Positions 23,927 to 62,225 of a DNA stretch of 64,000 bases are shown in pieces. The notes under the pieces were generated by a model that had not been told where the DNA came from, searched no databases, and saw only the letters and a program-made list of their open reading frames with translations. Where the stretch lies: the NCBI RefSeq assembly GCF_003018255.1, contig NZ_CP027440.1, one strand, 5' to 3'. The position numbers were made by a program, and so were the translations under genes. Source of the stretch: Escherichia coli (GTDB lineage: Bacteria > Pseudomonadota > Gammaproteobacteria > Enterobacterales > Enterobacteriaceae). How positions within the stretch are numbered: position 1 is the stretch's first letter; each line of letters starts with the position of its first letter.

Positions 23927-25067
<1,141 letters not shown>

Positions 25068-25565
25068 TCAAGTGTTTTGTAGAAATTGTTGCCACAAGGT
25101 CTGCAATGCATACGCAGTAGCCTGACGACGCACCGCATCACGGTCACCGCTGAAACATTCCCGCCGGGTAATGCCTTCACCACGGGCAGTGGCAAAAGCA
25201 AACCAGACGGTGCCGACAGGTTTCTCTTCACTGCCGCCATCCGGCCCGGCGATACCACTAATAGACACGGCGTAATCAGCACGAGCCGCTTTCAGTGCGC
25301 CTATCACCATTTCCACCACGACAGGTTCGCTCACCGCGCCATGCTGTGCCAGCGTCTCTTCGCGTACACCGATCATTTGCGCTTTTGCTTCGTTACTGTA
25401 GGTGACAAATCCGCGTTCAAACCAGGCGGAACTGCCGGCAATATCGGTAATCACTTTCGCTACCCAACCGCCGGTACAAGACTCAGCAGTTGTTACGGTT
25501 GCGCCACGGGCTTTCAGCGACTGCCCAACCTGTTCGCTTAACTGCATCAGTTCACTGTCAGTCAT
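25068..25565 (-). CDS. pncC: NMN amidohydrolase (CinA-like)
   Basis: ORF 25068-25568; about 165 aa; recognised as PncC/YgaD. Confidence 0.88.
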   Translation of the reverse strand: MTDSELMQLSEQVGQSLKARGATVTTAESCTGGWVAKVITDIAGSSAWFERGFVTYSNEAKAQMIGVREETLAQHGAVSEPVVVEMVIGALKAARADYAVSISGIAGPDGGSEEKPVGTVWFAFATARGEGITRRECFSGDRDAVRRQATAYALQTLWQQFLQNT

Positions 25566-25709
25566 CACAACCTCTGTCAGTCAAAAATTTATGCCGGACA
25601 AGATAACACTTTCGTCAGGAAGATGGTGTTGGCGTTGCAATTTTACGAGGAGGATTCAGAAAAAAGCTGATTAGCCAGAGGGAAGCTCACGCCCCCCTCT
25701 TACAAATAG

Positions 25710-26795
25710 TTACTGTACGCGCGCCAGCGCCACGGCTTGTCCTAACTGCCAGACCGCCATTGCGTAATGGGTGCTGTGGTTATAACGGGTAATGGTGTAG
25801 AAGTTCGGCAGACCGTACCAGTACTGGTAGCCGGTGCCAACATCCAGACGCAGCAGGCTGGCTTGTTGATGGTTGCCCAGCGGCTGCTGTGGCGTTAAAC
25901 CTGCCGCGGCAAGCTGCGAAATGCTGTACTTGGTTTTGAAGCCATTTGGCAAGCCTGGAGCCTGACCGTTTGCCATCACCGCAACCTGATCACCTTTCAC
26001 CCAGCCGTGCGCTTTGAAATAGTTCGCCACACTACCAATGGCATCAACCGGATCCCACAGGTTGATATGCCCGTCGCCGCTGAAATCTACCGCATATTGT
26101 TTGTAAGACGACGGCATAAACTGTCCGTAGCCCATCGCCCCGGCAAAGGAACCTTTCAGATTGAGCGGATCGTCCTGCTCGTCGCGCGCCATCAGCAGGA
26201 AGGTTTCCAGCTCGCCAGAAAAATACTCCGCGCGGCGTGGGTAGTTAAATGACAGCGTTGCCAGCGCATCGAGGATGCGAGTTTTCCCCATCACGCGCCC
26301 CCAGCGGGTTTCAACGCCGATAATCCCGACGATAATTTCCGGCGGTACACCATACACCTGCCACGCGCGATTCAACGCATCTTCATACTGATTCCAGAAA
26401 ACCACACCGTTCTGCACGTTGTCCGGCGTAATAAATTTTTTGCGATAACGCAGCCATGCGCCGTTCGGACCTGATGGCGGTTTCACCGATGTGGTTGGTG
26501 CCTGGTTATCCATCAGCCGCAGTACCGAATCCAGACGTTTCGCCTGGGAGAGAATTTCCTGCAACTGCTGACGATCGAAACCGTGTTTGTTCACCATTTT
26601 GTCGATGAACTGCTGGGCATTCGGATTATTGGCGAAGTCACCGCCCATCTGCATCACATTGTGCTGCGGCTCAAGCAGGAAGCCGCCAGACGGCGTTCCG
26701 GTGGTCGTTTCAGTCTCAGTAGGTTTTGGCTTGCTGCTACAGGCGGCAAGCAACACAAAAAGGGGAAGCAATGTTACATAACGACGCTTGAACAT
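25710..26795 (-). CDS. mltB: membrane-bound lytic murein transglycosylase B
   Basis: ORF 25710-26900; start placed at MFKRRYVTLLPLFVLLAACSS lipoprotein signal (361 aa). Confidence 0.88.
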   Translation of the reverse strand: MFKRRYVTLLPLFVLLAACSSKPKPTETETTTGTPSGGFLLEPQHNVMQMGGDFANNPNAQQFIDKMVNKHGFDRQQLQEILSQAKRLDSVLRLMDNQAPTTSVKPPSGPNGAWLRYRKKFITPDNVQNGVVFWNQYEDALNRAWQVYGVPPEIIVGIIGVETRWGRVMGKTRILDALATLSFNYPRRAEYFSGELETFLLMARDEQDDPLNLKGSFAGAMGYGQFMPSSYKQYAVDFSGDGHINLWDPVDAIGSVANYFKAHGWVKGDQVAVMANGQAPGLPNGFKTKYSISQLAAAGLTPQQPLGNHQQASLLRLDVGTGYQYWYGLPNFYTITRYNHSTHYAMAVWQLGQAVALARVQ

Positions 26796-27032
26796 GAGGG
26801 GTCCATTTAACAGATTCAACCAGGGGCAAGTATGGTAAAGCATCACGCCCCGCACAAGGAAGCGGTAGTCACTGCCCGATACGGACTTTACATAACTCAA
26901 CTCATTCTCCTCGCTATCCTTTTATTCAAACTTTCAAATTAAAATATTTATCTTTCATTTTGCGATCAAAATAACACTTTTAAATCTTTCAATCTGATTA
27001 GATTAGGTTGCCGTTTGGTAATAAAACAATAA

Positions 27033-28570
<1,538 letters not shown>

Positions 28571-28580
28571 AGGCTGAAAC

Positions 28581-29735
<1,155 letters not shown>

Positions 29736-29741
29736 TTAACA

Positions 29742-29766
29742 GCGGAGATCCGTTAAGGATCTCCGC
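29742..29766 (+). terminator. perfect hairpin after srlD
   Basis: GCGGAGATCC-GTTA-AGGATCTCCGC; no strong T-run follows, so terminator function is uncertain. Confidence 0.45.
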
Positions 29767-29780
29767 GAGACTAATAAAAT

Positions 29781-29805
29781 GCCTGATGCGCTACGCTCAT
29801 CAGGC
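29781..29805. repeat. REP element
   Basis: GCCTGATGCGCTACGCTCATCAGGC, classic REP palindrome, in srlD-gutM spacer. Confidence 0.75.
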
Positions 29806-29840
29806 ATACAGGACTTCCGCCACTACATTAAGGAAAAGTT

Positions 29841-30200
29841 ATGGTATCCGCACTCATCACCGTCGCCGTTATCGCCTGGTGTGCGCAACTGGCCTTAGGC
29901 GGTTGGCAAATTTCTCGTTTTAACCGTGCCTTCGACACACTATGCCAGCAAGGGCGGGTTGGCGTGGGCCGTTCCAGCGGGCGCTTTAAACCGCGGGTCG
30001 TGGTCGCCATCGCCCTGGACGATCAGCAACGCATCGTCGACACCTTGTTTATGAAAGGACTGACCGTCTTCGCCCGACCACAAAAAATTCCCGCAATTAC
30101 CGGTATGTATGCGGGTGATTTACAGCCCGATGTGATCTTTCCCCATGATCCACTATCACAGAATGCTCTATCATTGGCGCTTAAACTGAAACGTGGATAA
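29841..30200 (+). CDS. gutM: glucitol operon activator
   Basis: 119-aa ORF; recognised as GutM. Confidence 0.9.
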   Translation: MVSALITVAVIAWCAQLALGGWQISRFNRAFDTLCQQGRVGVGRSSGRFKPRVVVAIALDDQQRIVDTLFMKGLTVFARPQKIPAITGMYAGDLQPDVIFPHDPLSQNALSLALKLKRG

Positions 30201-30266
30201 TTTCGTTGTGAATGTTACTTGCTTGCGAAGTTATCATTTTGAAACCTAAATCAGGTAATCACGCCC

Positions 30267-31040
30267 ATGAAACCTCGTCAGCGTCAGGCCGCCATTCTGG
30301 AGTATCTGCAAAAGCAGGGTAAATGCTCGGTTGAAGAATTGGCGCAATACTTTGACACCACAGGCACAACCATTCGCAAAGATCTGGTCATTCTGGAACA
30401 TGCCGGAACCGTCATTCGTACTTATGGCGGAGTGGTGTTGAATAAAGAGGAATCCGATCCGCCAATCGATCATAAAACACTCATCAACACCCACAAGAAA
30501 GAGCTGATTGCAGAAGCTGCCGTTAGTTTTATCCATGATGGCGATTCGATCATTCTTGATGCTGGCAGTACCGTTTTGCAGATGGTCCCCCTGCTCTCGC
30601 GCTTTAATAACATCACAGTGATGACCAACAGCCTGCATATCGTCAATGCGCTATCCGAACTGGATAACGAACAAACTATCCTGATGCCAGGCGGAACATT
30701 TCGTAAAAAATCGGCCTCATTTCACGGGCAACTGGCAGAGAATGCCTTCGAGCATTTCACCTTCGATAAATTGTTTATGGGCACCGACGGCATCGATCTC
30801 AATGCGGGCGTAACCACGTTCAACGAGGTTTATACCGTCAGTAAGGCAATGTGCAATGCCGCGCGCGAAGTGATTTTGATGGCGGACTCATCAAAGTTTG
30901 GCCGTAAAAGCCCCAACGTAGTTTGCAGTCTTGAAAGCGTCGATAAGCTAATTACCGACGCAGGTATCGATCCAGCGTTTCGTCAGGCGCTGGAAAAGAA
31001 AGGGATCGACGTGATCATAACCGGAGAGAGCAATGAGTGA
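30267..31040 (+). CDS. srlR: DeoR-family glucitol operon repressor
   Basis: 257-aa ORF; recognised as SrlR. Confidence 0.92.
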
Positions 31041-31998
31041 AGCACTACTGAACGCGGGACGTCAGACGTTAATGCTGGAGTTGCAGGAAGCAAGCCGTTT
31101 ACCGGAACGTCTGGGCGATGATTTTGTTCGCGCCGCCAATATCATCCTGCACTGCGAAGGCAAAGTGGTGGTTTCGGGAATTGGCAAATCGGGCCACATT
31201 GGTAAGAAAATCGCCGCAACGCTTGCCAGCACCGGCACTCCTGCCTTTTTTGTCCATCCGGCAGAGGCATTGCACGGCGACCTGGGGATGATCGAAAGCC
31301 GCGATGTGATGCTGTTTATCTCTTACTCCGGTGGCGCGAAGGAACTGGATCTGATTATTCCGCGTCTGGAAGATAAATCTATCGCGCTGCTGGCGATGAC
31401 CGGCAAACCGACGTCACCGCTGGGCCTGGCGGCGAAAGCGGTGCTGGATATCTCCGTAGAACGCGAAGCCTGCCCGATGCACCTTGCGCCGACCTCCAGC
31501 ACCGTCAATACCCTGATGATGGGTGACGCGCTGGCGATGGCGGTCATGCAGGCGCGCGGATTTAATGAAGAAGATTTTGCCCGCTCCCACCCTGCTGGAG
31601 CACTGGGCGCTCGCTTGCTGAATAAAGTGCATCATCTGATGCGCCGTGACGATGCCATCCCGCAGGTGGCGTTAACCGCCAGCGTGATGGACGCGATGCT
31701 GGAACTTAGCCGCACCGGTTTAGGTCTGGTGGCAGTGTGCGATGATCAACGACTGGTGAAAGGCGTCTTTACCGACGGTGATTTACGTCGCTGGCTGGTT
31801 GGCGGCGGCGCACTCACCACGCCAGTCAATGAAGCGATGACGGTCGGCGGCACCACGTTGCAATCGCAAAGCCGTGCCATCGACGCCAAAGAAATCCTGA
31901 TGAAACGCAAAATCACCGCCGCACCGGTAGTGGATGAAAACGGCAAACTCACCGGCGCAATTAACCTGCAGGATTTCTATCAGGCCGGGATTATTTAA
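31033..31998 (+). CDS. gutQ: D-arabinose 5-phosphate isomerase (SIS + tandem CBS domains)
   Basis: 321-aa ORF overlapping srlR stop; recognised as GutQ. Confidence 0.92.
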
Positions 31999-33509
31999 TC
32001 CTTCAGCCCCAGACGTTTCGCCAGCCGATGCAGGTTGGCGACGTCGGTTTCCAGCATCCGCGCACAGGCGGCCCAGTTGTGATGATTTTGCGCCAGTGCC
32101 TGACGAATGGTTTCACGCTGGAACGCTTCTGTCGCTTCACGCAGGTTTTGCTTAACGATAGGCACCGCCGCCGCTTCTGGCGGCGGCAACGTCACCTCAG
32201 GAAAAGCAAAATGTTGCGCCTCAAGAATCACTTCATCGCCGCTGCGAGTGGCTCTCGACAGTACTACCGCCCGATGAATAGCATGTTCCAGTTCGCGCAC
32301 GTTTCCCGGAAAACTGTAGTGTTGCAGTAAATTTCGCGCCCCGGCACTTAATACCACGCGGGAGAGCCCCAGCCGCAAACGACACTGCTCGCAGAAATAC
32401 CCCGCCAGCAGAATGACATCATCGCCCCGCTCACGCAGCGGCGGCACCGAAAGTGGAAACACGCTCAGGCGATGAAACAAATCGGCGCGGAATCGCCCTG
32501 CCAGCACCTCTTCGCGTAAATCGCGGTTAGTCGCCGCCAGCACGCGCACATCGACCCGCAAACTGCGGTCATCGCCAACGCGCTGAATATCGCCATACTG
32601 CAACACCCTCAGCAGCTTGGCCTGCAATGCCAACGACAACTCGCCGATCTCATCGAGAAACAGCGTGCCGTTATCCGCCATTTCAAACTTCCCGCTGCGG
32701 TTACTGATAGCACCAGTAAACGCCCCTTTCACATGCCCGAACAACTCACTTTCCGCCACACTTTCCGGCAGTGCGGCACAGTTGAGATAGACCAGCGGAT
32801 TCACCGCCCGTGGCGAGGCTTCATGAATCGCTTTCGCCACCAGCTCCTTACCGGTTCCCGTCTCACCGCTAATTAAAACGTTGAGATCGGATGCCGCCAC
32901 AATCTCAATCTCTTTTTTCAATTGCGTCATGCCTGGGGACAAACCAATCATCTGCGTCTGTTTCACCGCTTCAAACGGCGCGGCATCGCCTGGCAGCATA
33001 TTCTGGCTTTCCAGTTGTTCAATCAGTAACGCATTACTTAACGCTCCCGCCGCCAGTGCGGCAATCAGCCGTAGCTCTTCGTCGCTGAAAACATCGAACT
33101 GATCGGGCTGCATCCCGTCGAGCGTCAAGGCACCGATCAGGTTTTGCCCGGCAAACAACGGCAAACCAACGCAGGCGTGAACCTTCAGACTCTCCTGCCC
33201 TGGAATCAAACCGTCATAAGGATCGGGCAATTCGCTGTCTGCGGGAAAGCGCACCACATCACCCGCGCGGGCAATCGCTTCCAGCCGTGGATGACCTTCC
33301 AGCGCAAAGCGTCTACCGAGTACATCCTTCGCCAGCCCGTCGATGGCAAGCGGAATAAACTGCCGCGAGTCGTAACGTAGCAACGCAGACGCATCGCACT
33401 CCAGCACCTGACGCAGCGTGGTGATCAGGCGCTGAAAACGATCCTGATGACCAATCCCACGCTGCAATTCGATGGCGATATTCGCCAGCACATCAACGGA
33501 AAAACTCAT
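31995..33509 (-). CDS. norR: sigma-54-dependent NO-responsive transcriptional activator
   Basis: 504-aa ORF with AAA+ Walker A GETGTGKE and GAFTGA sigma-54 contact motif; recognised as NorR. Confidence 0.94.
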
Positions 33510-33521
33510 CTTTGCCTCACT

Positions 33522-33577
33522 GTCAATTTGACTATAGATATTGTCATATCGACCATTTTATTGATAGTCATTTTGAC
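33522..33577. promoter_or_regulatory. three NorR enhancer sites (GT-N7-AC)
   Basis: GTCAATTTGAC (33522-33532), GTCATATCGAC (33543-33553), GTCATTTTGAC (33567-33577) in the norR-norV divergent spacer. Confidence 0.8.
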
Positions 33578-33632
33578 TACTCATTAATGAGCACAATTTT
33601 ATTTATAGAGTAAAAACAATTAGATAAAAAAC

Positions 33633-33648
33633 TGGCACGCAATCTGCA
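33633..33648 (+). promoter_or_regulatory. sigma-54 (-24/-12) promoter of norVW
   Basis: TGGCAC-gcaat-CTGCA about 50 nt upstream of norV ATG. Confidence 0.8.
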
Positions 33649-33695
33649 ATCAGCAAGACATCTTTTTAGAACACGCTGAATAAATTGAGGTTGCT

Positions 33696-35135
33696 ATGTC
33701 TATTGTGGTGAAAAATAACATTCATTGGGTTGGTCAACGTGACTGGGAAGTGCGTGATTTTCACGGTACAGAATATAAAACGCTGCGCGGCAGCAGCTAC
33801 AACAGCTACCTCATCCGCGAAGAAAAAAACGTGCTGATCGACACCGTCGACCATAAATTCAGCCGCGAATTTGTGCAGAACCTGCGTAATGAAATCGATC
33901 TGACGGATATCGATTACATCGTAATTAACCATGCTGAAGAGGACCACGCCGGGGCGCTGACCGAACTGATGGCACAAATTCCCGATACGCCGATCTACTG
34001 TACTGCCAACGCTATCGACTCGATAAATGGTCATCACCATCATCCGGAGTGGAATTTTAATGTGGTGAAAACAGGCGACACGCTGGATATCGGCAACGGC
34101 AAACAGCTCATTTTTGTCGAAACGCCAATGTTGCACTGGCCGGACAGCATGATGACTTACCTGACAGGCGACGCGGTACTGTTCAGTAACGATGCTTTCG
34201 GTCAGCACTACTGCGACGAGCATCTGTTCAACGATGAAGTGGATCAGACGGAGCTTTTCGAGCAGTGCCAGCGTTATTACGCCAATATCCTGACGCCGTT
34301 CAGCCGCCTGGTAACGCCGAAAATTACCGAGATCCTGGGCTTTAACTTACCAGTCGATATGATAGCGACCTCTCACGGCGTGGTATGGCGCGATAACCCG
34401 ACGCAAATTGTCGAGCTGTACCTGAAATGGGCGGCGGATTATCAGGAAGACAGAATCACCATTTTCTACGACACCATGTCGAATAATACCCGCATGATGG
34501 CCGATGCTATAGCCCAGGGTATTGCGGAAACCGACCCACGCGTAGCGGTGAAAATTTTCAACGTCGCCCGAAGCGATAAAAACGAAATCCTGACCAATGT
34601 CTTCCGCTCAAAAGGCGTGCTGGTCGGCACTTCGACGATGAATAACGTGATGATGCCAAAAATCGCCGGGCTGGTGGAGGAGATGACTGGTTTACGCTTT
34701 CGTAACAAACGCGCCAGTGCTTTCGGCTCTCACGGCTGGAGCGGCGGTGCGGTGGATCGTCTTTCCACACGCCTGCAGGATGCGGGTTTCGAAATGTCGC
34801 TTAGCCTGAAAGCCAAATGGCGACCGGACCAGGACGCTCTGGAGCTATGTCGTGAACACGGTCGCGAAATCGCCCGTCAGTGGGCGCTCGCGCCGCTGCC
34901 GCAGAGCACGGTGAATACGGTGGTTAAAGAAGAAACCTCTGCCACCACGACGGCTGACCTCGGCCCACGGATGCAGTGCAGCGTCTGCCAGTGGATTTAC
35001 GATCCGGCAAAAGGCGAGCCAATGCAGGACGTTGCGCCAGGAACGCCGTGGAGTGAAGTTCCGGATAACTTCCTGTGCCCGGAATGCTCCCTTGGCAAAG
35101 ACGTCTTTGACGAACTGGCATCGGAGGCAAAATGA
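33696..35135 (+). CDS. norV: anaerobic nitric oxide reductase flavorubredoxin
   Basis: 479-aa ORF; C-terminal rubredoxin CxxC...CxxC; recognised as NorV. Confidence 0.94.
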
Positions 35136-36265
35136 GCAACGGCATTGTGATCATTGGTTCGGGCTTCGCCGCCCGCCAACTGGTGAAAAATATTCGCAAA
35201 CAGGACGCCTGTATTCCATTAACCCTGATTGCCGCCGACAGCATGGATGAGTACAACAAACCGGACCTCAGCCATGTTATCAGCCAGAGGCAACGTGCCG
35301 ATGACCTTACCCGCCAGACGGCGGGTGAATTTGCCGAGCAGTTTAATCTGCACCTGTTTCCGCACACCTGGGTAACGGATATCGATGCCGAAGCCCATGT
35401 GGTGAAAAGTCAGAATAATCAGTGGCAATACGACAAGTTAGTGCTGGCAACCGGTGCCAGCGCCTTTGTCCCGCCAGTGCCCGGGCGTGAGTTAATGCTG
35501 ACGTTAAATAGTCAGCAAGAGTATCGCGCCTGTGAAACGCAACTGCGGAATGCCCGACGCGTGTTGATTGTTGGCGGTGGCTTGATTGGTAGCGAACTGG
35601 CGATGGATTTTTGTCGTGCAGGCAAAGCGGTCACGCTAATCGACAACGCTGCCAGTATTCTGGCAGCGTTAATGCCACCGGAAGTAAGCAGCCGCTTGCA
35701 GCATCGGTTGACGGAGATGGGCGTTCATCTGCTGTTAAAATCTCAGTTGCAGGGGCTGGAAAAAACGGATTCTGGCATTCTGGCAACGCTGGACCGCCAG
35801 CGCAGCATCGAAGTGGATGCGGTAATTGCCGCCACCGGACTGCGCCCGGAAACCGCCCTGGCACGACGCGCCGGGCTGACGATTAATCGCGGCGTTTGCG
35901 TCGATAGTTATCTGCAAACCAGTAATGCCGATATTTATGCGCTGGGCGATTGCGCGGAAATTAACGGTCAGGTATTGCCGTTCCTCCAGCCGATTCAACT
36001 TAGCGCGATGGTGCTGGCAAAAAATCTTCTCGGCAATAACACGCCGCTGAAACTCCCGGCGATGCTGGTGAAAATCAAAACGCCGGAATTACCGCTGCAT
36101 CTGGCAGGCGAAACCCAGCGTCAGGATTTACGCTGGCAAATTAATACCGAACGCCAGGGAATGGTGGCGCGCGGTGTTGATGATGCCGACCAGCTTCGCG
36201 CCTTTGTGGTCAGTGAGGATCGGATGAAAGAGGCGTTTGGATTGTTGAAAACGTTGCCGGTGTAG
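35132..36265 (+). CDS. norW: NADH:flavorubredoxin reductase
   Basis: 377-aa ORF overlapping norV stop; N-terminal GSGFA FAD motif; recognised as NorW. Confidence 0.93.
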
Positions 36266-43736: not shown

Positions 43737-43817
43737 GTGCCGGATGCGGCGTGAACGCCTTATCCGGCCTACATGTCGCACGAACCAGGTAGGCCCGATA
43801 AGCGCAGCGCATCGGGC
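43737..43817. repeat. REP elements
   Basis: gtgccggatgcggcgtgaacgccttatccggcctac and gtaggcccgataagcgcagcgcatcgggca between ascB and hycI. Confidence 0.75.
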
Positions 43818-58204: not shown

Positions 58205-58215
58205 ACGCCTTATTT

Positions 58216-58250
58216 GCCGGAGAGTATGGCTCTCCGGCAGATTTATTTCT
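58216..58250. terminator. bidirectional hairpin terminator between Mop gene and ygbA
   Basis: GCCGGAGAG-TATGG-CTCTCCGGC followed by T-rich ATTTATTTCTTT. Confidence 0.65.
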
Positions 58251-61434: not shown

Positions 61435-61440
61435 TAACAA

Positions 61441-61470
61441 TTCCCGATAGTCTTTTGCTATCGGGAATAT
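61441..61470 (+). terminator. hairpin after mutS
   Basis: TTCCCGATAG-TCTTTTG-CTATCGGGAA. Confidence 0.5.
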
Positions 61471-62196: not shown

Positions 62197-62225
62197 TCTC
62201 ATGCTTCTTCTGTGAAGCATGAGTA
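62197..62225. terminator. bidirectional hairpin between pphB and ygbI
   Basis: CTCATGCTT ... AAGCATGAG inverted repeat. Confidence 0.5.

Follow-up and report, generated by a model that had tools for sequence, protein, structure and literature searches.

REP elements are reportedly stabilisers of mRNA in polycistronic operons, a role that Newbury et al. are said to have set out in 1987 with malE-malF as the paradigm. Rho-dependent transcription attenuation associated with BIMEs was reportedly described by Espeli, Moulin and Boccard in 2001. Dar & Sorek 2018 (PMC6061677) found genome-wide that Rho-dependent transcripts have their steady-state ends immediately 3′ of stable stems lacking a U-tract; such stems, of which 24% are REPs, stop PNPase and RNase II once termination has taken place further downstream. 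Ribosome stalling and mRNA cleavage are reported for REPs placed within less than 16 nt of a stop codon (Liang, Rudd & Deutscher 2015, as summarised in PMC12306157).

The srlD-gutM junction of Escherichia coli has points in common with each of these. As in the malE-malF type, an intercistronic REP lies downstream of highly expressed genes, an RNA 3′ end falls at the base of the REP stem and the upstream RNA is the more abundant; unlike that type, the junction has a single REP and an extra, non-REP hairpin between the stop codon and the REP. With BIME attenuation it shares a repetitive palindromic element between co-transcribed genes and lower downstream expression that is partly Rho-dependent, although the Escherichia junction holds one REP rather than an inverted REP pair. 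It resembles the Dar and Sorek class in that the srlD end lies 1–3 nt past a stable U-less stem, itself a REP, and possibly in bicyclomycin-sensitive read-through, but the element sits inside an operon and not at its end, with a strong Rho peak ~750 nt further on, in srlR. The steady-state ends that place it in this class are those at the REP (29808 and 29810, against a stem end of 29807), none being listed at the first hairpin. Like the stop-proximal REPs of Liang et al., a stable stem-loop lies within 15 nt of the stop codon (6 nt at srlD), whereas this srlD-proximal stem is a single-copy hairpin and the REP is 43 nt from the stop. A G+C-rich 10-bp stem with a short loop, right after a gene, recalls intrinsic terminators; in contrast to these, the srlD-gutM stems lack a uridine-rich tract of 7–8 nt, read-through is considerable and the terminator score is 1.51, below 3.0.

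A sequence-only reading of the window (the whole 64,000-nt stretch of E. coli DNA analysed here) had placed a hairpin between srlD and gutM, followed by a REP, and this arrangement was confirmed in the sequence. On balance, hairpin and REP probably act as a U-less tandem barrier to 3′ exonucleases and as an attenuator within the operon. The features of the locus are as follows.

27051–27614, plus strand: srlA
27611–28570, plus strand: srlE
28581–28952, plus strand: srlB
28956–29735, plus strand: srlD coding sequence (sorbitol-6-phosphate dehydrogenase), TGA at 29733–29735; from the open reading frame list and the RefSeq annotation of 118UI and K-12
29736–29741, plus strand: 6-nt spacer, sequence TTAACA, from the srlD stop to the hairpin
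29742–29766, plus strand: locus-specific hairpin, arms GCGGAGATCC (29742–29751) and GGATCTCCGC (29757–29766), loop GTTAA (29752–29756)
29767–29778, plus strand: 12-nt linker GAGACTAATAAA between the two stems, A/U-rich, single-stranded
29779–29807, plus strand: single REP palindrome ATGCCTGATGCGC/TAC/GCTCATCAGGCAT, an inverted repeat with 13-nt arms and one C.T mismatch (92% complementary)
29808–29810, plus strand: mapped srlD transcript 3′ ends (Term-seq and TRS, both in MG1655)
29830–29834, plus strand: gutM Shine-Dalgarno sequence AAGGA
29841–30200, plus strand: gutM coding sequence, ATG at 29841; it opens the regulatory part of the operon, which is less expressed
30267–31040, plus strand: srlR
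30566 (MG1655 2829346), plus strand: bicyclomycin-sensitive peak of Rho-dependent termination inside srlR (Adams et al. 2021, supplementary file 2)
31033–31998, plus strand: gutQ

The srlAEBD-gutM-srlR-gutQ operon is convergent with norR. Over 301 bases round the junction the window shows 100% identity with strain 118UI and 97.3% with records derived from K-12, DH1 for instance, and MG1655 coordinates were transferred by setting the gutM ATG at 2828621 equal to 29841. The srlD-gutM spacer is 105 nt long. The whole junction (29725–29845) folds with −48.2 kcal/mol (z −6.4), and hairpin and REP jointly, in an RNA ending at 29810, with −39 kcal/mol (z −8.6). The predicted fold leaves the gutM Shine-Dalgarno sequence free, 22 nt without structure separating it from the REP palindrome, whose end lies 33 nt upstream of the gutM start codon. 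A long-range helix between the last srlD codons and 29809–29818, present in the minimum free energy fold, was discounted because the site lies under translating ribosomes and the helix is impossible in an RNA ending at 29810. The linker differs between strains (a 1-nt indel, A/G and A/C). It might conceivably serve as an endonuclease entry site; among RNase E-like motifs sought in it, a partial match alone was found (AAAUG at 29777), which is uninformative.

The hairpin begins 6 nt past the srlD stop codon. Its 10-bp stem, described as perfect by the sequence-only reading, is so in this allele, with G-C at 7 of the 10 pairs, but in K-12 and most E. coli it contains one G.U pair. The loop is the 5-nt GTTAA and both arms are 10 nt long, in place of the 4-nt loop GTTA and 11-nt arm first given. 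By itself the hairpin folds with −20.8 kcal/mol (z −6.7). Perfect stems of at least 10 bp with loops of 3–8 nt occur at five loci in the window, against 0.49 ± 0.84 expected from 100 dinucleotide shuffles, and the hairpin exceeds chance expectation. The other perfect hairpins of at least 10 bp lie at 35645–35670, 58215–58239, 61440–61468 and 62198–62223; that at 58215–58239 stands after a stop codon with T-rich sequence next to it, and is terminator-like.

In 5408 of 5426 complete E. coli genomes the hairpin is single-copy, and it is always found at the srlD locus. Its identification as a REP or other dispersed repeat was rejected, given a median of one place per genome and a sequence unrelated to the REP consensus. 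A search of 25000–35000 against Rfam 15, with E values up to 1, gave no credible family for either stem; the sole overlapping match, NiCo-AnGGAG, scored 24.9 bits against a gathering threshold of 64.5 (E 0.084) and is at chance level. No description of the single-copy hairpin was found in the literature searched. The remark that it lacks a U-run was correct: the 8 nt past the stem read GAGACTAA, within the tail GAGACUAA, and a promoter and terminator scan of the srlD-gutM spacer returned no terminator-like or promoter-like site on either strand. An antisense terminator was rejected as well, the minus-strand tail TGTTAATC having T at only 4 of 8 positions and no minus-strand gene lying upstream within the operon.

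The second stem is a genuine REP, as consensus, copy number and extragenic place all fit. It is one mismatch from the short REP consensus GCCTGATGCGCTACGCTTATCAGGC; shuffled sequences are expected to yield 0 matches, and 5425 of 5426 E. coli genomes carry the REP at no fewer than 40 places each. Its core is GCCTGATGCGCTACGCTCATCAGGC at 29781–29805. The REP starts 12 nt past the hairpin (14 nt to the GCC core), not 15 nt as had been counted, and in this allele the palindrome reaches 29807, two bases beyond the end of 29805 assigned to it earlier. On its own it folds with −18.2 kcal/mol (z −6.6), and the tail after it, ACAGGACU, is without a U-tract. Two REP alleles occur in Escherichia: the window and K-12 carry …GCTCATCAGGCAT, and other lineages the canonical …GCTTATCAGGCCT. 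The former replaces a G.U by a G-C pair and extends the pairing at the foot, the stem being longer and stronger here than in the canonical …CTTATCAGGCCTAC form. A BIME, with at least two alternating REPs and a linker motif, was rejected for the Escherichia junction, which has one REP only. The features of the MG1655 record do not include the REP at 29779–29807. Elsewhere in the window, a REP-like palindrome on the minus strand (43793–43817, GCCCGATGCGCTGCGCTTATCGGGC, preceded by …CCGGCCTAC) has a sequence suggesting part of a BIME-type pair.

Public data sets place RNA ends at the junction. In supplementary files 1 and 3 of Adams et al. 2021 (PMC7815308) the srlD-gutM spacer has a single Term-seq 3′ end, at MG1655 2828590 on the plus strand, corresponding to window position 29810, 3 nt past the REP stem and 31 nt upstream of the gutM ATG, in the sequence context …CATCAGGCATAC|A. 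It is classed as ‘orphan’, with an average of 4666 reads, and has an intrinsic-terminator score of 1.51 against the authors’ threshold of 3.0. Supplementary data 2 of PMC10687069, in which RNAtag-seq data were analysed by TRS, independently give an srlD 3′ terminus peak at 2828586–2828595 with a signal of 0.988; the dominant position, 2828588, is window 29808, 1 nt past the REP stem, with extremely small adjusted p values. Among the ends listed in either supplement between 2828500 and 2828599, none lies at the base of the first hairpin (expected at 2828547–2828552), and the TERMITe supplements have no entry for srlD or gutM. Mapping of 3′ ends across the srlD-gutM junction, the check proposed for the hairpin, finds ends at 29808 and 29810 and none listed at the hairpin itself. 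On Northern blots, Maes et al. 2016 saw a band ‘the size of srlAEBD’. Taken together, the data show a discrete srlAEBD RNA whose end lies at the REP and is not an intrinsic termination site. The idea of a stability or processing element in place of a full terminator stands in general, given the score of 1.51, but the mapped end is at the REP and not at the hairpin to which that role had been assigned.

Adams et al. (PMC7815308) also give direct RNA-seq coverage over windows of 800 nt; at 2828590 it is 585 upstream and 197 downstream without bicyclomycin (−BCM), and 309 and 199 with it (+BCM). RNA level thus drops ~3-fold across the junction, and bicyclomycin relieves the drop in part. Downstream coverage at about one third of upstream (197 against 585 reads) bears out the expected read-through into gutM-srlR-gutQ. 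A Rho component had not been foreseen. The Rho score at 2828590 is 1.91 and flagged as significant (PMC7815308), with an 800-nt scoring window that overlaps the Rho region internal to srlR, and the flag may reflect the strong terminator there. At the srlR position 2829346, coverage falls from 697 to 76 without bicyclomycin and from 386 to 156 with it (Rho score 3.7, p 1.7e-18; PMC7815308), so much of the operon’s transcription stops short of gutQ in LB-grown cells. Some transcription passes the junction and is halted further on by Rho. All of these measurements of expression were made in LB or glucose cultures rather than in sorbitol-induced cells.

These observations can be assembled into a mechanism. 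The hairpin-REP module would be transcribed within the srlAEBD-gutM-srlR-gutQ mRNA and would release RNA polymerase inefficiently, so that part of it continues into gutM and srlR, where much would then be ended by Rho. RNAs ending downstream, through Rho or an endonuclease, would be trimmed 3′ to 5′ by exonucleases back to the REP stem, leaving a discrete and relatively stable srlAEBD message that ends 1–3 nt past the REP. The first hairpin would be a second barrier, coming into play once the REP has been breached or the A/U-rich linker cut. Expression would thereby differ within one operon, with abundant transporter and dehydrogenase mRNA and regulator RNA roughly 3-fold lower. As the mapped ends are at the REP and none is listed at the hairpin, a stability role is documented for the REP, and it is by extension that we infer one for the hairpin, which may be redundant or serve something else. 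The balance between the activator GutM and the repressor SrlR is thought to set induction of the operon, and an element fixing the regulators’ share of the mRNA could tune this circuit.

The same data bear on whether the hairpin is instead a weak U-less signal for pausing or partial termination, which would slow polymerase after srlD, uncouple the ribosome and admit Rho. A G+C-rich 10-bp stem placed directly where translation ends would suit such a signal, as would the bicyclomycin sensitivity of the downstream RNA loss and the link of REPs and BIMEs to Rho-dependent attenuation reported by Espeli et al. (2001), and in some genera (loci L033, L042 and L163) the equivalent stem has a short T-run after it and resembles a leaky intrinsic terminator. 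However, no 3′ end is among those listed at the hairpin, the hairpin is without a U-tract, and the sole Rho termination region listed for the locus peaks ~750 nt downstream, inside srlR. Enrichment of C over G past the REP, moreover, is weak and short (1.28 over the first 78 nt). We regard a pausing role as distinctly unlikely.

Sequence variation in Escherichia was assessed at 101 Escherichia-type loci, taken from genomes, species representatives, 80-odd metagenome contigs and the window. The 10-bp stem is without mismatch in 98 of them, in 8 haplotypes. Three stem positions vary: G-C becomes G.U at the base (K-12 and most strains), U-A becomes U.G and C-G becomes U.G, each yielding a G.U pair on the mRNA-sense strand. 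At the first loop position all four bases occur. Two-sided, compensatory covariation in the stem was found at none of the 101 loci, so that the hairpin structure is not provable by covariation. Three one-sided wobble changes out of three amount to a weak signal (p ~0.04–0.125 under simple neutral models), and with variable columns at 3 of 20 in the stem against ~13 of 56 in the flanks, the stem is not clearly less variable. Lacking two-sided covariation, and with stem columns not clearly more conserved than the flanks, these sequences do no more than hint at selection on RNA pairing of the hairpin. The exceptions to an intact stem are an IS insertion in E. coli XD35 and two metagenome contigs with 1-nt deletions. 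The deletions are probably assembly errors, since these contigs carry other 1-nt spacer deletions and one has 1.7x coverage. In XD35 (L078, 2527–3800) the IS5-like element ISEc68 sits in the loop at TTAA (window 29753–29756), with TTAA duplicated, and parts srlAEBD from gutM-srlR-gutQ by ~1.2 kb.

Could the palindrome lack an RNA function, acting at the DNA level as a protein-binding dyad or GATC pair, or persisting as a neutral remnant that template-switch correction between the arms has kept perfect? In several Escherichia lineages its symmetry is unbroken up to the centre (CCTT-N-AAGG, 12-1-12), more than an RNA hairpin requires; two-sided covariation is not seen, the loop TTAA has received an IS5-family element in one strain, and two GATC sites lie one helical turn (11 bp) apart. 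These GATC (Dam) sites, one in each arm at 29747–29750 and 29758–29761, are probably incidental, as the automatic outcome of a palindrome. Against a DNA role, all three stem substitutions are wobble-compatible only on RNA of the transcribed sense, and the half-site does not occur in the srlA promoter region, its nearest matches (at most one mismatch) lying elsewhere in the window. GutM and SrlR are, furthermore, conserved across genera, but the hairpin sequence is found in Escherichia only and other genera place unrelated stems at the junction, which fits a structural RNA requirement better than a sequence-specific operator. A palindrome without RNA function is accordingly, in our judgement, rather improbable.

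An RNase III processing site that divides srlAEBD from gutM-srlR-gutQ would also explain a perfect duplex here, and srl operon genes shift on overexpression of the RNase III modulator YmdB. That shift, however, is operon-wide and possibly indirect, and no processing site is among the mapped ends at the hairpin. A 10-bp stem is about half the length that RNase III usually needs, and on this ground we rejected RNase III processing, which is very improbable.

To place the junction in a wider context, we scanned one genome per species for GutM. Of the 70 loci found, 67 have srlD directly upstream of gutM, with spacers of 41 to 612 nt that nearly always hold a strong stem-loop, although the stems are non-homologous. 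Escherichia has its unique hairpin, whose sequence is confined to the genus, with one REP. A single REP, a BIME or an array reaching about ten REPs occupies the spacer in Salmonella, Citrobacter, Klebsiella, many Enterobacter and Kosakonia; paired or arrayed REPs occur, for example, at L009, L017, L055 and L067, and true BIMEs in Citrobacter, Klebsiella, Enterobacter and Kosakonia. The alternating REP arrays (BIME clusters) of Kosakonia cowanii (L055) and Phytobacter ursingii (L067) extend over 550–612 nt. In Trabulsiella, Pluralibacter, Cedecea, Lelliottia, Buttiauxella and others, short G+C-rich hairpins of unrelated sequence are fitted tightly into the space from stop codon to Shine-Dalgarno sequence, and in Trabulsiella and Pluralibacter the spacer is only 41–46 nt, with one small hairpin. 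Metagenome contigs add more unrelated stems at the junction; in at least one spacer, that of L144, no obvious strong stem was seen in the sequence by eye. One metagenome-assembled genome, ‘Citrobacter sp. HRGM_Genome_0066’, has two srl loci (L003 and L041), one of E. coli type with 99% GutM identity and the Escherichia hairpin, the other of Citrobacter type, and is probably a mixed bin.

Folding z-scores of 65 Enterobacteriaceae srlD-gutM spacers have a median of −3.95, against −1.46 for the gutM-srlR spacer of the same loci (Mann-Whitney p 4e-16, a value inflated by the phylogenetic relatedness of the loci compared). Four or more T in the 8-nt tail after the stem were found in only 3 of the 65, and in 59 of the 65 the most stable structure begins at most 15 nt past the srlD stop. 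It is possible, though doubtful, that a U-less stem within ~15 nt of the srlD stop is selected family-wide and rebuilt from unrelated sequence, and that the Escherichia hairpin has a role distinct from that of the REP. If so, the hairpin could be a termination-coupled stop for ribosomes or exonucleases that sets the ratio of SrlD to GutM and SrlR, or a last-line protector of srlAEBD after the REP has been degraded.

Proximity to the stop codon also raises an action on translation, by which the hairpin would hinder the terminating ribosome and lower SrlD, trigger cleavage and trans-translation, or block ribosome coupling to gutM. The hairpin is only 6 nt past the TGA, the most stable stem-loop is equally stop-proximal (at most 15 nt) in those 59 of 65 loci, and stalling of ribosomes has been reported for REPs closer than 16 nt to a stop (PMC12306157). 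The srlD-proximal stem, though, is not a REP, and short spacers place stems near the stop whatever their function. A stem that follows a 6-nt spacer would begin near +13 from the P-site, close to where the ribosome’s mRNA entry channel opens, and may need no unwinding. No ribosome-profiling or tagging data for srlD were found. We consider an effect on translation unlikely, and prefer the tandem barrier and attenuator.

The REP, its operon-stabilising role and the mapped srlD 3′ end are already established or publicly tabulated, and the single-copy hairpin belongs to a familiar class; nothing at the srlD-gutM junction challenges current understanding, and the element is most likely an ordinary one that stabilises a message and divides expression. 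The practical value lies in annotation of the srl/gut operon, where the internal RNA 3′ end at the REP means that equal expression of the structural and regulatory halves is not to be assumed. The repeated, sequence-independent keeping of a U-less stem at this junction across the family is mildly interesting, as a small, clean example of structure retained while sequence turns over.

Two further sites were seen in the operon. A sigma-70-like promoter match on the plus strand at 30174–30201 (TTGGCG, 16 nt, GATAAT) overlaps the 3′ terminus of gutM, with the srlR start ~65 nt downstream, and is by consensus match a candidate internal srlR promoter. Within srlA, 215 nt into the open reading frame, a small plus-strand hairpin at 27265–27288 (CGTGCATTGGCACG followed by TTTGTCTTTT) coincides with a published Term-seq end of class ‘internal’ (MG1655 2826058, window 27277), and may be a premature terminator or attenuator in the first gene of the operon.
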